From the sequence record DRR378314_956: a stretch of DNA of 64,000 nt, one strand, 5' to 3'. Both the position numbers and the translations under genes were made by a program. Position 1 is the first letter of the stretch. The number at the start of each line of letters is the position of its first letter. Below are positions 45,326 through 64,000 of this stretch, piece by piece. The notes beneath the pieces were generated by a model that had not been told where the DNA came from, made no database searches, and worked only from the letters and a program-made list of their open reading frames with translations.

Positions 45326-46327
45326 ATGTTTGATGGCAAAACAGTTCTGATCACCGGCGGCACTGGATCCTTTGGGCAGCAGTTCGTGAAAACCCTCTTG
45401 GAACGATACCGCCCCTCCAGGATTATTGTGTACTCCAGGGACGAGCTGAAGCAGTTCGAAATGCAGGAGCGATTCCGCAACTCCAGCATGCGGTACTTCC
45501 TCGGTGATGTCCGGGATCGTGAGCGCCTGGAGTTTGCCCTCAGGGATGTGGATATTGTGGTTCATGCGGCCGCGCTCAAGCAGGTTCCCGCCGCTGAATA
45601 CAACCCCATGGAGTGTATAAAGACCAACATACATGGCGCCGAGAACGTGACCCACGCCTGCGTTGCCAACTCGGTGAGCCGGGTTATTGCGCTGTCCACG
45701 GACAAAGCGGCCAATCCGGTCAATCTCTATGGCGCCACCAAACTGGCGTCGGACAAGCTGTTCGTGGCGGCCAATAACATTGTGGGCAAGCGACAGACGC
45801 GCTTCTCCGTCGTGCGCTATGGCAATGTGCTGGGGTCTCGAGGCTCCGTGGTGCCTTTCTTCAAAAAGTTGATCGCAGAGGGAGCGGAGTCTTTACCGAT
45901 CACCGATCCCCAGATGACCCGGTTCTGGATCACGTTGCAGGGCGGTGTGGAGTTTGTTCTGAACAGCTTCGCGAGAATGCAGGGCGGGGAGATCTTTGTG
46001 CCCAAGATTCCGTCAGTTCGCATTGCGGATGTCGCAACCGCCATGGCGCCGGACCTGCCACAGAAACTGGTTGGTATTCGTCCTGGTGAAAAGTTACACG
46101 AAACCATGTGCCCGCGGGACGATAGCCATGTGTCCCTGGAATTTGATGATCATTTCGTGATCAAGCCGGCCATCCGTTTCTATGGTGGCAACCTTGATTA
46201 CAGCCAGAATCTGAAAGGGGAGAAGGGCAAGCCGGTCAAGCAAGGCTTTGCTTACAACTCCGGTAATAACCCATGGTTCCTGAGCAACGATGAAATTCTT
46301 GAGTGGAACCGAGAGGCCGGGTTTTGA
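45326..46327 (+). CDS. pseB: UDP-GlcNAc 4,6-dehydratase (inverting)
   Basis: [42 protein letters not shown] and MTRFWI. Confidence 0.93.
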
Positions 46328-47490
46328 TTCCGTACAGTTGCCAGGAACTGAACGACGACGATATCCGATCAGTGCTTCGGGTATTGCACTCGGATTTTCT
46401 GACCCAGGGCCCGGAAGTGCCGGCGTTCGAGAAAGCACTGGCGTCACGCTGTGGCGCGGCCGAGGCTGTTGCGGTAAACAGCGCAACGTCAGCCTTGCAC
46501 TTGGCTTGCCTGCTGCTGGGAGTGGGGCCGGGCGACCGGGTGTGGACATCGCCCATCAGTTTCGTGGCCTCGGCCAATTGCGCCCTCTATTGTGGGGCTG
46601 AGGTCGACTTCGTCGATGTAGACCCCCGCTCCGGGAATATGAGCGCGAAAGTATTAGAGGAGCGATTGGCTCAGGCTGACCGGGAAGGCACCCTGCCCAG
46701 GGTTATTATCCCTGTTCATTACGCAGGTCAGCCTTGCGACATGCGCGCCATTGGCGAGTTGGCAGGGCGGTATGGCGTGCGAGTCATCGAAGATGCATCC
46801 CATGCACTGGGGGCGACCTTCGAGGAAAGTCCTGTCGGAGCCTGCCCGTTCAGTGATATCACGGTGTTCAGTTTTCATCCCGTGAAGATGATTACAACCG
46901 GCGAAGGTGGGGCGTTGGTCACTAATGACCCGGGCCTTGCAGAACGTGCCAGGGCACTGCGTACCCACGGCATTACACGGGCGGCTGACCGGGTTAGTGG
47001 CGTTGATCAGGAACCCTGGCGGTATGCGCAGGTGGAACTCGGGTTCAACTACCGCATGACCGACCTCGAAGCCGCGTTGGGCCAGTCCCAGCTGGGCCGA
47101 CTGGATGACTTTGTCCTTACCAGACGACAACGTGCCGGGGCGTACATTGATGCGTTCCGTGATACGCCGGCCCGTACCTTATGGCAGTCTCCTGACGGCA
47201 ACAGCAGTTGGCATCTCATGGTTGTCCAGGTCTCCCAGGGCATCCGCAGTGAGGTGTTCCGGTCACTCCGCGCGGCCGGCATTGGCGTGAACGTTCATTA
47301 CATGCCCATCTATCTTCAGCCTTACTATCGCCAACTGGGCTTTGCGGAGGGCTATTGTCCCGCCGCCGAGGCTTTCTATGGGCAGGCGATCAGTATTCCG
47401 TTGCATACGCAATTGACGCCGGGCGATCAGCGCCGGGTTGTTGAGGCGGTTATATCCAGTGAGGCCAGTGCCTCTGGCCACAGCCACTGA
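46324..47490 (+). CDS. pseC: UDP-4-keto-6-deoxy-AltNAc aminotransferase
   Basis: [19 protein letters not shown] and FSFHPVK.ITTGEGG; TTG start overlaps the pseB stop. Confidence 0.9.
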
Positions 47491-47511
47491 CGGTTGGCAG
47501 GAACGGTCTGT

Positions 47512-48777
47512 ATGTCAAAACACCTGATGATCATCGGCGCGGGCCCAAACCAGATGCCCGCCATTCGCATGGCCCGGAGCAGGGGCTACCGGGTGACCGT
47601 GACCGATTATGACCCCAATGCCGTGGGGTTTGCCGAGGCCGATCACCATGGCGTTGTCAGCACCCGTGACGCCGATGCCACGGTGGCGTTTGCACGCGCA
47701 CTGCACGACAAGGAACCGCTGGATGGTGTGATGACCCTGGCGTCAGAGAGCGCGGTTGCCGTCGCGTCGGTTGCCGAAGAACTCGGCCTGCCCGGAACTT
47801 CCAGGAACTCGGCCTGGTTGGCAACTCATAAGGTCGACCGGCAGCGCACGTTCGCAGCGGCGGACATACCCGCGCCTGGTTTCCAGGCTGCAAGTTCCCT
47901 GGAGGAAGGCGTTGCCGCCGCGGACCGGTTGGGATGGCCTGTGGTCGTCAAGCCCGCCGACAGTGCGGGGTCCCGGGGAGTAAGGCTGGTCCACGACCAG
48001 CAGGGCATGGCGTCAGCCGTTGATGAAATTCGAGGTGTCAGCGGCCAGGTGGAATTCCTAGTAGAGGAATACCTGGAGGGCACGGAACACAGTATCGAGG
48101 GTGTGGTACTGAATGGCGAGGTGTTCTGGGCGGCAATCTCCGACCGGAATTATGATGACAAGCACCGGTATCCGCCGTATTTCCTCGAAGATGGCGATAC
48201 CCTGCCGTCGCTGGTTAACGACGAGGTTGCCGAGGAGATTCGTTCGGTTTCGACGCGCGCGGTCCGGGCCCTCGGTATTCATTGGGGGCCGGTCAAAGGC
48301 GACATCATCGTTGCTCCGGATGGGCCACGGGTCCTTGAAATGGCCGCCCGGCTGTCCGGTGATTATTTCTGCTATGAGACCATTCCTTTGCACAATGGCA
48401 TCGACTTGCTGGCGGTGGTGATGGATATGGCCGTTGGTTATACCGTCGATTCTGCGAGGTTGAAGCCCTCAAAGCATCAGGGCGTCGCTTTGCGGTACGT
48501 ATGGCCCAAACCCGGTGTGGTCACCGACATTCGGGGTGTAGAAGATGCGAAGGCGCAGACGGGCATTCATTTTGTCCGGCTGGAGCCCCACTGGGTGGGC
48601 CTGGCACCGGGGGATCGGATCGCCCCGGCCAGTTCCATGGGGGAGCGTGTGATGTCGGTGATGGCGTGGGGCGCTGGTCGTGAAGAGGCGGTCGCGCGGG
48701 CGTGCCGGGCTGTTAACACAGTTCACATCGACACTCGCCCTGAAGAGAGCGATCTCCCGCGCCCGAGGGGGGCCTGA
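47512..48777 (+). CDS. ATP-grasp ligase
   Basis: IIGAG..Q, PVVVKPADSAGSRGV, LVEEYLEG.E.S and LEMAARLSG. Confidence 0.85.
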   Translation: MSKHLMIIGAGPNQMPAIRMARSRGYRVTVTDYDPNAVGFAEADHHGVVSTRDADATVAFARALHDKEPLDGVMTLASESAVAVASVAEELGLPGTSRNSAWLATHKVDRQRTFAAADIPAPGFQAASSLEEGVAAADRLGWPVVVKPADSAGSRGVRLVHDQQGMASAVDEIRGVSGQVEFLVEEYLEGTEHSIEGVVLNGEVFWAAISDRNYDDKHRYPPYFLEDGDTLPSLVNDEVAEEIRSVSTRAVRALGIHWGPVKGDIIVAPDGPRVLEMAARLSGDYFCYETIPLHNGIDLLAVVMDMAVGYTVDSARLKPSKHQGVALRYVWPKPGVVTDIRGVEDAKAQTGIHFVRLEPHWVGLAPGDRIAPASSMGERVMSVMAWGAGREEAVARACRAVNTVHIDTRPEESDLPRPRGA

Positions 48778-63089: not shown

Positions 63090-63110
63090 GAACGGTTCCG
63101 GTTGTTGGGT

Positions 63111-63134
63111 GCCCCGGAAATGATCTTCCGGGGC
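63111..63134 (-). other. GC-rich hairpin 3' of flagellin, no U tract
   Basis: GCCCCGGAA-N6-TTCCGGGGC; on the minus strand it is followed by ACCCAACAACC. Confidence 0.6.
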
Positions 63135-63147
63135 GCTCTTCTAACGG

Positions 63148-64000
63148 TTAGCCTTGCAGTAGCTGAAGCACCTGCTGAGGCCGGGCGTTCGCCTGCGACA
63201 GAACCGAGAGACCCGCCTGTTGCAGTACCTGGGTGCGAGCCAGTTCCGCGGTTTCCGCCGCGAAATCAGCGTCCCTGATACGGCTGTTGGCCGCCGAGAG
63301 GTTCTCGGATGTAGTGCTCAGGTTCGTGATCGTCGACTCGAACCGGTTCTGAACGGCACCGAGTTCGGCCCTCAGCCCGTTGATCTGGTCAATGGCGTAA
63401 TCCGTGGCGATCATCGCCAGGTCTGCGCCATCCTGTGACGATATGTCTATCGTGTTCACCGAGACCTGATCACCCGGTATGGTCGTCGCAACGTTGAATG
63501 TGGCGCCACTGGCGACCGTGACATCCACTGTGAACGCCTGCTCGAATTCTGACGAGAATATGATGTCATTGTTCTCACGGTCAAGGAACGCTGTCACGCC
63601 GGTTTGCTGGGTTTGTGCGTTAACTTGCCCAAGAATGTCCTCGAGAGAACTGGCGCCGCTGACGTTGACCACCGTTGTACCAGAGGCATCCAGTAGTGGA
63701 AGCTCAACCGAGAAGTCCACTGTGCCGCCGGCGTCGAAGATGTCCGCTACGCTCTGGCCACTGACCAGTGCTGCCGACAGACCTGAGGTGGCGCCAATGA
63801 CGGAACCAAGGGCGCTCCCCCTCGCATCCAGCCCGCTGACGGAGATGGTTTCACCGGTATTTGCGCCGACCTGGAAGGTTTGCGTTGGAAGCGATCCATC
63901 CAATACCCGAAGGCCGTTGAAGGATGTCTGACTGGCGATTCGGCTAATCTCGGCGATTCGTTGCTGAACTTCCTGGTTCAGGGCGTCACGGTCCGAGTTG
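63148..64000 (-). CDS. fliC: Flagellin (5' part lies beyond the window end)
   Basis: Frame stays open to the window edge (NSDRDALNQEVQQRIAEISRIASQTSFNGLRVLDG), FQVGAN, RAELGAVQNRF, SRIRDADFAAE and QVLQLL. Confidence 0.95.
   Translation of the reverse strand, partial: NSDRDALNQEVQQRIAEISRIASQTSFNGLRVLDGSLPTQTFQVGANTGETISVSGLDARGSALGSVIGATSGLSAALVSGQSVADIFDAGGTVDFSVELPLLDASGTTVVNVSGASSLEDILGQVNAQTQQTGVTAFLDRENNDIIFSSEFEQAFTVDVTVASGATFNVATTIPGDQVSVNTIDISSQDGADLAMIATDYAIDQINGLRAELGAVQNRFESTITNLSTTSENLSAANSRIRDADFAAETAELARTQVLQQAGLSVLSQANARPQQVLQLLQG

Follow-up and report, generated by a model that had tools for sequence, protein, structure and literature searches.

A rare gene cassette beside a flagellin gene

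What does a marine bacterium build with a rare gene cassette that adjoins its flagellin gene? The cassette, or island, lies in the 64,000-nt stretch of DNA analysed here (the window). On balance, we lean towards reading it as an exchangeable cassette in which an ATP-grasp enzyme would install a sugar-acid acyl group, in place of the customary acetyl, on pseudaminic acid (Pse), a sialic-acid-like sugar, for use on flagellin; this leaning extends to the frame and not to the exact acid. The general trick of placing a custom acyl group on a flagellar nonulosonate is known in other bacteria. A first-pass annotation that proposed an undescribed pathway made the class look more unique than it is, but the present enzyme set does appear to be unstudied. 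The features are listed here with the matches on which they were named.

43106..45142, - strand: TPR plus degenerate methyltransferase gene; left flank, outside the island
45326..46327, + strand: pseB, UDP-GlcNAc 4,6-dehydratase (inverting); TIGR03589, 544 bits, cut-off 408
46324..47490, + strand: pseC aminotransferase; TIGR03588, 519 bits, cut-off 424
47512..48777, + strand: ATP-grasp amide ligase with L-amino-acid-ligase architecture; ATPgrasp_N, ATP-grasp_4 (PF13535), LAL_C2 (PF18603)
48777..50573, + strand: PseG-like GT-B domain (aa 1-340) fused to a PIG-L/LmbE domain, 598 aa; named from families, model pLDDT 86
50563..52209, + strand: M20 amidohydrolase; PF01546, fold nearest ArgE/DapE
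52206..53294, + strand: Gfo/Idh/MocA sugar oxidoreductase; PF01408
53326..54423, + strand: NeuB-family nonulosonate synthase of a separate clade; PF03102 and SAF
54426..54989, + strand: GNAT acyltransferase, not a PseH orthologue; PF00583
54986..56827, + strand: cytidylyltransferase fused to a second PseG-like GT-B domain; PF02348, E=4.8e-26
56827..57804, + strand: extended SDR (epimerase/dehydratase/reductase family), first gene of the tailoring module; PF01370
57801..58886, + strand: enolase-superfamily enzyme with a mandelate-racemase-type active site; PF13378 and PF02746
58906..59808, + strand: class I SAM methyltransferase 1; PF13489 (Methyltransf_23), E=7e-29
59805..61073, + strand: polysaccharide pyruvyl transferase family protein; PF04230, Atlas 0.97 with 30/30 matches to PF04230
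61093..62283, - strand: SAM methyltransferase 2, with the layout of an NDP-sugar C-methyltransferase (TcaB9-like); PF13489 and PF08484, TcaB9 E=1.6e-10
62298..63089, - strand: probable 2-oxoglutarate/Fe(II) (2OG) oxygenase; HxD...H motifs in the translation, Atlas cluster
63148..64000, - strand: 3' part of flagellin fliC1, the presumed acceptor; PF00700
56223..63148, no strand: dispensable block; one public contig has 2856 other bases in its place

In the window annotation, the island comprises 13 co-oriented genes on the + strand plus two on the flagellin (-) strand. Eight of the 12 junctions in the + strand run are overlaps and the other four are gaps of 2-31 bp, with starts chosen among alternatives; pseC, for example, is read from a TTG that overlaps the pseB stop, with an alternative GTG at 46303. 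The earlier count of 11 genes was wrong. The presence of pseB, pseC, a NeuB-type synthase and a cytidylyltransferase beside flagellin was confirmed, and Pfam matches bear out the families given for the ATP-grasp, M20, Gfo, SDR, enolase-superfamily, GNAT, methyltransferase and pyruvyl-transferase-like genes. Overlooked were the 598-aa PseG-like and PIG-L fusion, the second PseG-like domain on the cytidylyltransferase and the loss of the catalytic base from the PIG-L domain.

The fliC1 gene is truncated by the window edge and is closest to the fliC1 of Maf-positive genomes (81% and 79% in two). No flagellin glycosyltransferase gene is present inside the window; in the loci of the genus that were read, maf is directly upstream of fliC1. 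The TPR gene on the left flank is found at 96% in G001, the nearest genome compared, where it comes directly after flagellin and the site is empty, with no island, no NeuB and no Maf. With the TPR gene on one side and fliC1 on the other, the island is separate from the wzx/wzy polysaccharide locus, which lies 8 kb from it in the same window.

A divergent nonulosonate core

The window pseB is 75% identical to its L009 orthologue. The NeuB-family synthase reaches 279 bits against TIGR03586 (its orthologues 308 and 273), under the cut-off of 340, and three controls score 505-515; in a NeuB tree it groups only with orthologues of this cluster type (support 99/96). By score and tree, it falls outside the PseI equivalog. 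The island GNAT has no match to PseH (TIGR03585) at E<=1e-5 in the NCBIfam scan, nor does any PseH pass the cut-off in G011, which carries the same cluster and is 100% complete (the control, G103, scores 131 bits). The slot after neuB holds a formyltransferase in L007 and L013, and GNAT and formyltransferase alternate across four loci. The PseF model is absent from the NCBIfam matches of the cytidylyltransferase; its PF02348 domain is present, and from its motif we take it to be of SpsF type.

Both PseG-like domains match TIGR03590 (PseG) below its cut-off of 153.55 (84.6 bits for the PIG-L fusion and 98.2 for the cytidylyltransferase-fused domain), and they are 26% identical to each other. 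The first keeps the predicted fold and the N-terminal His; its profile finds PseG (3hbm, E=2e-9) ahead of glycosyltransferases, and in model comparison it scores Z 20.8 to PseG (3hbn) and Z 21.1 to MurG. The second carries GHVVGS or GHVVGC where GHxxR is usual.

The model of the PIG-L domain resembles BshB (Z 26.3, rmsd 2.0, 200 aligned), and the metal ligands H354, D357 and H467 (His-Asp-His) are kept in 25/25 sequences. Fold and ligands are common to LmbE/PIG-L metallo-deacetylases such as MshB and BshB, for which PMC4101496 defines the general base as the first Asp of HXD1D2. In the island domain, however, the motif is HPGDE and this Asp is Gly (Gly356) in all 27 family members, whereas 126 of 131 relatives outside the fusion keep the Asp. 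The domain has probably lost deacetylase function, and the LmbE-fold hydratase GalB (5cgz, Z 24.3 to the island domain) illustrates that the fold is capable of other chemistry. A distant PseG-PIG-L protein, P0301, continues straight into NeuB-like sequence, with neither M20 nor Gfo between.

The ATP-grasp gene comes after pseC and is a candidate replacement for PseH. Its best PDB match is the L-amino acid ligase 3vot (E=1.6e-19). The M20 enzyme, whose fold is of the N-acyl-amino-acid deacylase type, has its metal and catalytic residues (H124, D126, D149, E187, E188, E212 and H518) intact in 35/35 sequences. The nearest PDB entry to Gfo is glucose-fructose oxidoreductase (E=5e-19), a match that is not diagnostic.

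A dispensable tailoring module

In one public contig the SDR, enolase-type, methyltransferase, pyruvyl transferase and 2OG block is replaced, and ATP-grasp, M20 and Gfo are retained. The joint was read in a single contig of run X3 (record 18) at depth 18.7, and its shorter side spans 255 letters. Because this contig lacks the block, two parts can be told apart in the island, a core and a tailoring module that is dispensable. The first-pass annotation had envisaged a single route of oxidation, dehydration, reduction, methylation and ligation; this route is not supported, as the contig speaks against it and it would leave M20, the second PseG-like domain, the GNAT or formyltransferase and the pyruvyl transferase without a role.

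Within the module, the SDR keeps its YGNSK motif in 3/3 aligned loci. The enolase-type enzyme has the complete mandelate-racemase-type site of KxK, three metal ligands (D/E/N) and a His-Asp dyad, with K154, K156, D184, E210, N235 and H286 in 34/34 sequences and D259 in 33/34. The site does not fit the N-acyl-amino-acid racemase or dipeptide epimerase type, the second catalytic Lys that 2p88 and 3jva have opposite KxK being Asp or Glu in 34/34. A pyruvyl transferase requires a diol and Pse itself is without one, which points to an additional polyhydroxy part. The 2OG oxygenase is where it had been annotated, but the family call is only probable: the window protein has no Pfam or NCBIfam match, its L006 orthologue matches PF13640 below the cut-off (E=1.9e-4), and its Atlas cluster (0.95) has PF13640 in 21% of members.

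Recurrence in other genomes

All 15 genes keep their order and orientation in another genus at 51-75% identity, and recurrence is therefore beyond chance. The same gene order is found in Hahella ganghwensis, where flagellins and a gene for a Maf transferase adjoin it; a Desulfobacteraceae genome has 11 of the genes. In the G011 genome, PF03102 matches nothing but the island NeuB, and Maf lies between two flagellins, adjoining the cluster. Across the window's genus, Maf occurs in 43 of 191 genomes and NeuB in 90, the 43 all falling within the 90; NeuB is often inside a wzx/wzy-type polysaccharide locus. The L088 locus is laid out like the window (TPR, then pseB pseC...neuB, then fliC and maf). 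The module is also met downstream of RfaH-like and ABC-exporter genes, and in G264, where no Maf passes the cut-off. In L012, the same core stands behind RfaH-like and ABC-exporter genes, and neither L012 nor L013 has an ATP-grasp, be it between pseC and the PseG-PIG-L gene or anywhere else along the roughly 12 kb covered. L006 carries an extra aldo-keto reductase.

Comparison with known systems

The closest tested system is the sfmABCDE flagellin-modification operon of Shewanella oneidensis MR-1. According to PMC3765264, this operon includes NeuB, SDR, methyltransferase and ATP-grasp genes, and flagellin changes in mass when the ATP-grasp gene is deleted. The glycan there consists of monoacetyl-Pse with a large polyhydroxy moiety, C9H16O7, linked to the nonulosonate; the paper leaves amide and position unspecified. 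Like this operon, the island combines PseB/PseC with a divergent NeuB, an ATP-grasp (412 aa in sfm) and no clear PseH, together with a SAM methyltransferase of about 395 aa and an SDR. The nearby Maf of the Shewanella system has its counterpart in relatives that carry the cluster, but was not seen for the window organism. The sfm-like L084 cluster of the window's genus has an ATP-grasp at 35% and a methyltransferase at 27% to those of the island. The sfm type also has a thiamine-diphosphate enzyme and a FabG-type SDR; neither is the best match of any of the 17 proteins scanned, whereas the L084 control has them. Conversely, the island adds M20, Gfo, two PseG-like domains, the base-less PIG-L, the enolase-type enzyme, the pyruvyl transferase and the 2OG oxygenase.

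The methoxy-trihydroxyhexanoyl glycan that had been named from Treponema is real: as given in PMC13439194, Treponema denticola FlaB carries a 2-methoxy-4,5,6-trihydroxyhexanoyl-nonulosonic acid. Like the product proposed here, it is a nonulosonate on flagellin that has the Pse configuration and bears an acyl group resembling a sugar acid. An enolase-type dehydratase, together with a reductase and a methyltransferase, would be apt for making its deoxy, O-methyl chain. The link seems to be a chemical analogy only, since no Treponema-named protein appears among the 120, 120 and 46 homologues listed for three markers (most rows nameless).

The canonical CMP-Pse5Ac7Ac pathway uses PseB/C/H/G/I/F with Maf (bioRxiv 10.64898/2026.04.20.719630). 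It shares with the island PseB and PseC over cut-off, PseG-like, NeuB-family and cytidylyltransferase domains, and the Maf beside the cluster in G011. The island differs in the lack of PseH, the doubled PseG-like domain, a synthase that is not a PseI equivalog, a cytidylyltransferase that does not match as a PseF equivalog, and ten extra enzymes or domains. Acinetobacter ElaABC and EpaAB likewise place Gfo/Idh/MocA, SDR and cytidylyltransferase genes in a nonulosonate cluster, but their SDRs are of another class and they serve capsule, not flagellin (PMC13656337, PMC12053666); the island Gfo and SDR also appear to be separable.

A proposed pathway

That the ATP-grasp supplies a non-acetyl group, as had been suggested, is still the best reading because there is no PseH, the synthase is atypical and Shewanella offers a precedent. 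Substrate assignments past PseC are inferred from sequence, as the best PDB matches are weak and there is no close characterised relative. Judged by their family cut-offs, PseB and PseC produce UDP-4-amino-4,6-dideoxy-AltNAc. The ATP-grasp, in place of PseH, may then join an acid to the 4-amine, the later N7, where the Treponema denticola chain is reportedly carried. An amino sugar may be the source of the acid itself: its release from UDP would fall to one PseG-like domain, Gfo would oxidise C1 to give an aldonate, the ArgE-like M20 would deacylate the nitrogen of the N-acyl-amino acid so formed, and another amine would be capped by the GNAT or formyltransferase. This origin seems the most coherent reading of the core, and an amino-aldonate would fit that core better than a Treponema-type deoxy, O-methyl acid, which is one option. 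At the level of families, the second PseG-like domain, divergent NeuB and SpsF domain could complete and activate a bulky CMP-nonulosonate. The enolase-type dehydratase or epimerase, extended SDR, two methyltransferases, pyruvyl transferase and 2OG oxygenase may tailor the polyhydroxy chain. Judging from relatives, maf would lie just beyond the window edge, and Maf would move the sugar onto flagellin Ser/Thr.

Weighing the alternatives

Several observations pull against this frame, including the loci without ATP-grasp, the module behind exporter genes, the module in G264 with no Maf over cut-off, and P0301. The GNAT itself could be an atypical PseH that acylates N4, and a GNAT/formyltransferase swap would look just like a switch between acetyl and formyl at N7. 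In one alternative, N7 would receive nothing larger than an acetyl group from the GNAT, or a formyl group in other loci, and the other enzymes would make a second sugar or sugar acid, with one PseG-like GT-B domain acting as a glycosyltransferase, the pyruvyl transferase capping the sugar and the ATP-grasp amidating a carboxyl with an amino acid. Taken as a whole, we consider this unlikely. The alternation after neuB, a first PseG-like model as near MurG as PseG, the C-methyltransferase layout of methyltransferase 2 and the altered GHxxR motif would all suit it, but both GT-B domains match the PseG family, the profile of the first leads to 3hbm, a GT2/GT4-type transferase is absent from the island in the family scan, and an ordinary N7-acetyl substrate leaves the divergent NeuB unexplained. 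Distinctly improbable, and a sub-case of the same ATP-grasp frame, is a nitrogen-free 3-deoxy-2-O-methyl aldonate of the Treponema denticola kind, which Gfo, enolase-type dehydratase, SDR and methyltransferase would build in a single line ahead of ligation. The enolase-type site does resemble that of acid-sugar dehydratases and lacks the second Lys of amino-acid racemases, and both known large substituents are nitrogen-free (C7H12O5, a formula computed here, in PMC13439194 and C9H16O7 in PMC3765264); the contig that keeps the ATP-grasp, M20 and Gfo without the SDR, enolase-type and methyltransferase block, the enzymes left idle and the lack of Treponema names among the homologues listed argue against it.

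The ATP-grasp frame also has to be set against two readings that place the novelty or the destination elsewhere. There is only a slim chance that the redox enzymes alter ring or side-chain stereochemistry (for example at C8, giving 8-epi-Pse), making the product a new isomer. The Gfo/Idh/MocA protein ElaA and SDR ElaC epimerise C8 of CMP-legionaminic acid (PMC13656337), and an aldo-keto reductase and SDR act similarly on Pse (PMC12053666); the extra reductase of L006 is also an aldo-keto reductase. The Ela/Epa SDRs are, however, of the classical ketoacyl-reductase type and the island SDR is extended, Gfo seems tied to M20 and not to the SDR, and only two of 15 genes would be accounted for. Very unlikely, if slightly less so, is that the sugar is destined for a surface polysaccharide, with the fliC side merely a recombination hot spot. 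The exporter context of L012, the lack of a Maf over cut-off in G264, the wzx/wzy locus nearby and the frequent presence of NeuB in that locus across the genus lend it some weight. Against it, the family scan found no flippase, polymerase or ordinary glycosyltransferase in the island, its neighbours are the TPR gene and fliC1 with the polysaccharide locus separate from it, and in G011 the island adjoins two flagellins and maf.

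Gene content of the island

The island comprises 13 genes on the + strand, of whose 12 junctions eight overlap and the other four are spaced 2–31 bp, together with two genes on the flagellin strand:

45326–61073, + strand, first half in order: pseB, pseC, ATP-grasp ligase, PseG-like + PIG-L fusion, M20, Gfo/Idh/MocA oxidoreductase (Gfo), NeuB
45326–61073, + strand, second half in order: GNAT, cytidylyltransferase + PseG-like fusion, extended SDR, mandelate-racemase-type enzyme of the enolase superfamily (MR), methyltransferase 1, pyruvyl-transferase family protein
− strand, downstream of the flagellin cut by the window edge: probable 2OG oxygenase, methyltransferase 2

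Family searches of the window proteins bear out the enzyme families listed in the first-pass annotation, which had counted an 11-gene operon instead of 13 + strand genes and had overlooked the two PseG-like domains and the PIG-L domain. GC3 is 0.63–0.70 in island genes versus 0.74 and 0.78 in two flanking genes, which may be taken as a mild sign of exchange. No sigma-70-like promoter was found upstream of pseB, nor any match in the intergenic DNA to a sigma-28-like pattern devised for this analysis, and the public run X2 (guessed to be RNA) gave coverage in 5 of 30 bins. At 63090–63147, where the fliC stop is followed by the 2OG start, there is a G+C-rich inverted repeat that has no U-run. Transcription from flagellin possibly reads through to the 2OG and methyltransferase genes. 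Elsewhere in the window, a low-GC wzx/wzy locus (5900–37877, GC down to 0.36) with a sulfotransferase, an APS kinase, a second pyruvyl-transferase-like gene, a Gfo/aminotransferase pair and a DUF7033 protein probably directs a sulfated surface polysaccharide.

A rare and modular unit

Judging from genome comparisons, the island is a mobile, conserved unit. In the nearest genome, G001, the TPR gene of the left flank (96%) directly abuts the flagellin pair and the island is absent; neither NeuB nor Maf was matched there. The full gene set, in the same order and at 51–75% identity, is found in Hahella ganghwensis DSM 17046 (L006) and in L009/L010 of genome G011, which share one sequence and enter the count once. 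This copy has an extra aldo-keto reductase and adjoins two flagellins with Maf (PF20157 + PF01973) between them. A Desulfobacteraceae genome, G264, carries eleven orthologues at 35–60% (L007); there, a formyltransferase takes the place of the GNAT, and NeuB is short and of a different kind. Its methyltransferase 2 orthologue (L007:12651–13828) is broken by a frameshift, either an assembly error or real decay. In a metagenome locus (L012 and L013, overlapping by 131 bp and treated as one), pseB, pseC, PseG–PIG-L, M20, Gfo, NeuB and a formyltransferase stand behind RfaH-like and ABC-exporter genes. One relative's contig covers all 20 kb, with 1412 differences.

Protein searches returned tight clades ahead of a score drop, comprising 34 MR, 35 M20 and 26 PseG–PIG-L clusters within limits of our own choosing. 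Contigs of equal size pair 7 MR/M20 and 11 M20/PseG–PIG-L and give 6 triple sets, a circumstantial linkage. Presence in Marinobacter sp. CA1 and M. xestospongiae is read from accession spacing, the M20 and MR accessions being six numbers apart, the same spacing as the window genes. The island type is rare: the MR and M20 markers each occur in 1 of 263 family genomes, and the cluster type in none of 191 genomes in the genus of G001 (Marinobacter, going by named homologues). Searching M20 in the order of G264 gave 1 of 401 genomes, the query genome itself, and PseG–PIG-L was found in 0 of 401 genomes sampled in the order of G001, a sample without a positive control. No full-length PseG–PIG-L fusion turned up on plasmids (0 of 42 matching records), and a metagenome scan with the MR alignment gave 79 pattern matches, none confirmed.

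A single contig from run X3 (depth 18.7) matches 45077–56223, then has a different stretch of 2856 bases and returns to the window sequence at 63148, so that its island site is without the SDR, MR, both methyltransferases, the pyruvyl transferase and the 2OG gene. Desulfohalobium retbaense is among the M20 and PseG–PIG-L homologues and not among the 120 MR homologues listed. From these two patterns, the island can therefore be divided into a core (pseB through the cytidylyltransferase–PseG fusion) and a separable tailoring module. L018:185–1949 pairs a distant M20 (36%) with a downstream Gfo enzyme (31%), and none of the genes in view belongs to nonulosonate synthesis, so the M20–Gfo pair may be an older unit. 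L100:3930–18565, filed as viral in IMG/VR, holds pseB-like, NeuB, PseG-like, methyltransferase, ATP-grasp and SpsF-like genes; a possible phage may thus carry a nonulosonate cluster, or the contig may be host DNA mis-filed as viral.

Flagellin as the probable target

NeuB is present in 90 of the 191 Marinobacter genomes and Maf in 43, all of them within the NeuB set. Across 18 NeuB or Maf regions inspected in 17 genomes of the genus, maf lies between or beside flagellins wherever it is in view, and locus L088 has the layout of the window: TPR, pseB pseC ... neuB, fliC1 on the opposite strand, maf. Because maf adjoins flagellins in the genus and L088 copies the window layout, a maf gene is predicted just beyond base 64000. 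A contig of run X1 extends some 6.3 kb beyond that edge. The window fliC1, cut by the window edge, shares 81% and 79% identity with the fliC1 sequences of two Maf-positive genomes and aligns with that of G001 in pieces only. The island NeuB is the sole NeuB in G011. With maf predicted from relatives, the sugar's target is probably flagellin.

The TPR gene was considered as an FlmG-type transferase and rejected, its C-terminal part being methyltransferase-like and the gene also occurring without the island. This TPR + degenerate methyltransferase gene (43106–45142) lies beside flagellin genus-wide (68–96%) and in L006 (about 22%), and is a candidate flagellin-associated modifier.

An atypical Pse backbone and its ligase

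The Pse backbone of the island is atypical. PseB and PseC exceed family cut-offs; the island differs from the canonical pathway in failing on PseH and PseI. No PseH was found in the island, nor over the cut-off in G011, while the control genome G103 passes; the GNAT was rejected as a PseH orthologue. On the PseI model, the island NeuB scores 279 and its orthologues 308 and 273, against 505–515 for controls. A tree of 35 NeuB sequences, 30 of them the best-scoring of the genus, joins the island sequence and only two orthologues in a clade (99/96 support) whose deeper placement is unsure because branches are long. In addition to L007, a Pse cluster of canonical type (L063:1–10622; PseI 506 bits) is present in G264, where it follows an ABC exporter-like gene.

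The ATP-grasp gene directly follows pseC in the window and L009. Its product has L-amino-acid-ligase domains, with such a ligase as best PDB match, and is 35% identical to the ATP-grasp of an sfm-like cluster, L084. In PDB searches, none of the M20, Gfo, SDR, ATP-grasp, MR and methyltransferase 2 proteins had a close homologue that has been characterised.

Active sites of the accessory enzymes

The PIG-L domain keeps its fold (model pLDDT 86; Z 26.3 to BshB) and all three metal ligands. Passages of PMC4101496 describe the HXD1D2 Asp as the general base of PIG-L deacetylases. This residue is replaced by Gly in the window protein and 26 of 26 homologues; 131 further PIG-L relatives have 126 Asp, 3 Gly, 1 Glu and 1 fragment at the position. 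Among more distant fusions, Gly is kept in four, and metal ligands are also lost in P0302, P0308 and P0312; P0307, of a different build, keeps Asp, and P0305 has no motif match. Since the general-base Asp is lost, the domain is unlikely to be an ordinary deacetylase. Gly also occupies the position in the stand-alone PIG-L proteins P0348, P0367 and P0385. The M20 protein has an ArgE/DapE fold, with seven metal and catalytic residues intact in 35 of 35 sequences. Modelling M20 and the PIG-L domain as a complex, without alignments, gave a score of 0.01 and a mark of 0.34, which speaks neither for nor against an interaction.

The MR residues (KxK, D184/E210/N235, H286/D259) form a site that would suit acid-sugar dehydration or epimerisation, not amino-acid racemisation. 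Assignment as an N-acyl-amino-acid racemase or dipeptide epimerase was rejected despite rank-2 and rank-5 matches, the second Lys being absent. Methyltransferase 2 resembles NDP-sugar C-methyltransferases. A pyruvyl transferase requires a diol.

Proposed pathway and alternatives

On balance, we lean slightly towards a pathway in which an ATP-grasp ligase attaches a sugar-acid acyl group, its exact identity left aside, to a pseudaminic-type nonulosonate for flagellin. At the family level, PseB and PseC give a 4-amino UDP-sugar, whose 4-amine, later N7, would be acylated by the ATP-grasp. The core would have to provide the acid as well: an amino sugar freed by one PseG-like domain would be oxidised by Gfo to an aldonate, M20 would deacylate the resulting N-acyl-amino acid, and the GNAT or formyltransferase would cap another amine. 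The ligase would attach the acid, and the second PseG-like domain and divergent NeuB would take the bulky product. Again by family, the PseG-like, NeuB and cytidylyltransferase domains should be able to complete a CMP-nonulosonate, and the tailoring module would then modify the polyhydroxy chain.

The proposed amino-aldonate route to the acid uses every core enzyme; in exact form, as a branched pathway from a single UDP-amino-sugar, it is quite unlikely. One share would be capped and set free by a PseG domain; C1 oxidation and removal of the N-acyl group by M20 would turn it into a sugar-derived alpha-amino acid (aldosaminate), which the L-amino-acid-ligase-type enzyme would amide-link to the other share before nonulosonate synthesis. 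If so, flagellin bears a double amino sugar joined by a peptide link, with a computed mass before tailoring of 476.212 Da with acetyl or 462.196 Da with formyl, and the fused PIG-L domain either is a conserved pseudo-deacetylase or carries out new chemistry.

Other readings can be set beside the favoured acylation. That N7 bears a small acyl group and the remaining enzymes build a second sugar is unlikely, if still deserving some weight. A nitrogen-free acid of the Treponema type, a sub-case of ATP-grasp acylation, we regard as distinctly unlikely; the acyl chain of the Treponema denticola glycan is reportedly at N7. It is highly doubtful that the sugar is made for a polysaccharide rather than flagellin, a reading favoured by like chemistry in polysaccharide settings (L012) and by G264 having no Maf over the cut-off. 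C8-type epimerisation by Gfo and the SDR, as in ElaA/ElaC, has precedents in passages of PMC13656337 and PMC12053666 and seems very improbable here.

Relation to known systems

The island is real, but systems of this kind are already known. Mass spectra and NMR have revealed large N-acyl groups on flagellar nonulosonates in Shewanella and Treponema, and the Treponema glycan named in the first-pass annotation does exist (excerpts of PMC13439194). In the open-access papers searched, neither a biochemical account of building or attaching such groups nor a description of this cluster was found. Excerpts of PMC13317340 contain no passage on ATP-grasp, ligase or deacetylase, and those of PMC5109656 mention formyltransferases and nothing further relevant. 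This compact cluster is conserved in more than one phylum, public genomes with names carry it (Hahella ganghwensis DSM 17046 and, by accession spacing, Marinobacter sp. CA1 and M. xestospongiae), and it has a natural variant without the tailoring block, so ATP-grasp acylation of a Pse precursor is directly testable. It also supplies a PIG-L family without the catalytic base and suggests that M20 and enolase-superfamily enzymes may act in biosynthesis.

In Shewanella oneidensis, according to portions of PMC3765264, an operon of NeuB, a TPP enzyme, an SDR, a 395-aa methyltransferase and a 412-aa ATP-grasp is needed for the flagellin glycan, which is monoacetyl-Pse + C9H16O7 bearing up to two additional methyls. 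The island would work alike, but the TPP enzyme and FabG-type SDR of sfm are missing and it is therefore not a member of that type. An sfm-like cluster does occur in the same genus near fliC and maf (L084:7777–19550), with a short NeuB, split transketolase, FabG-type SDR, FkbM and SAM methyltransferases and an ATP-grasp.
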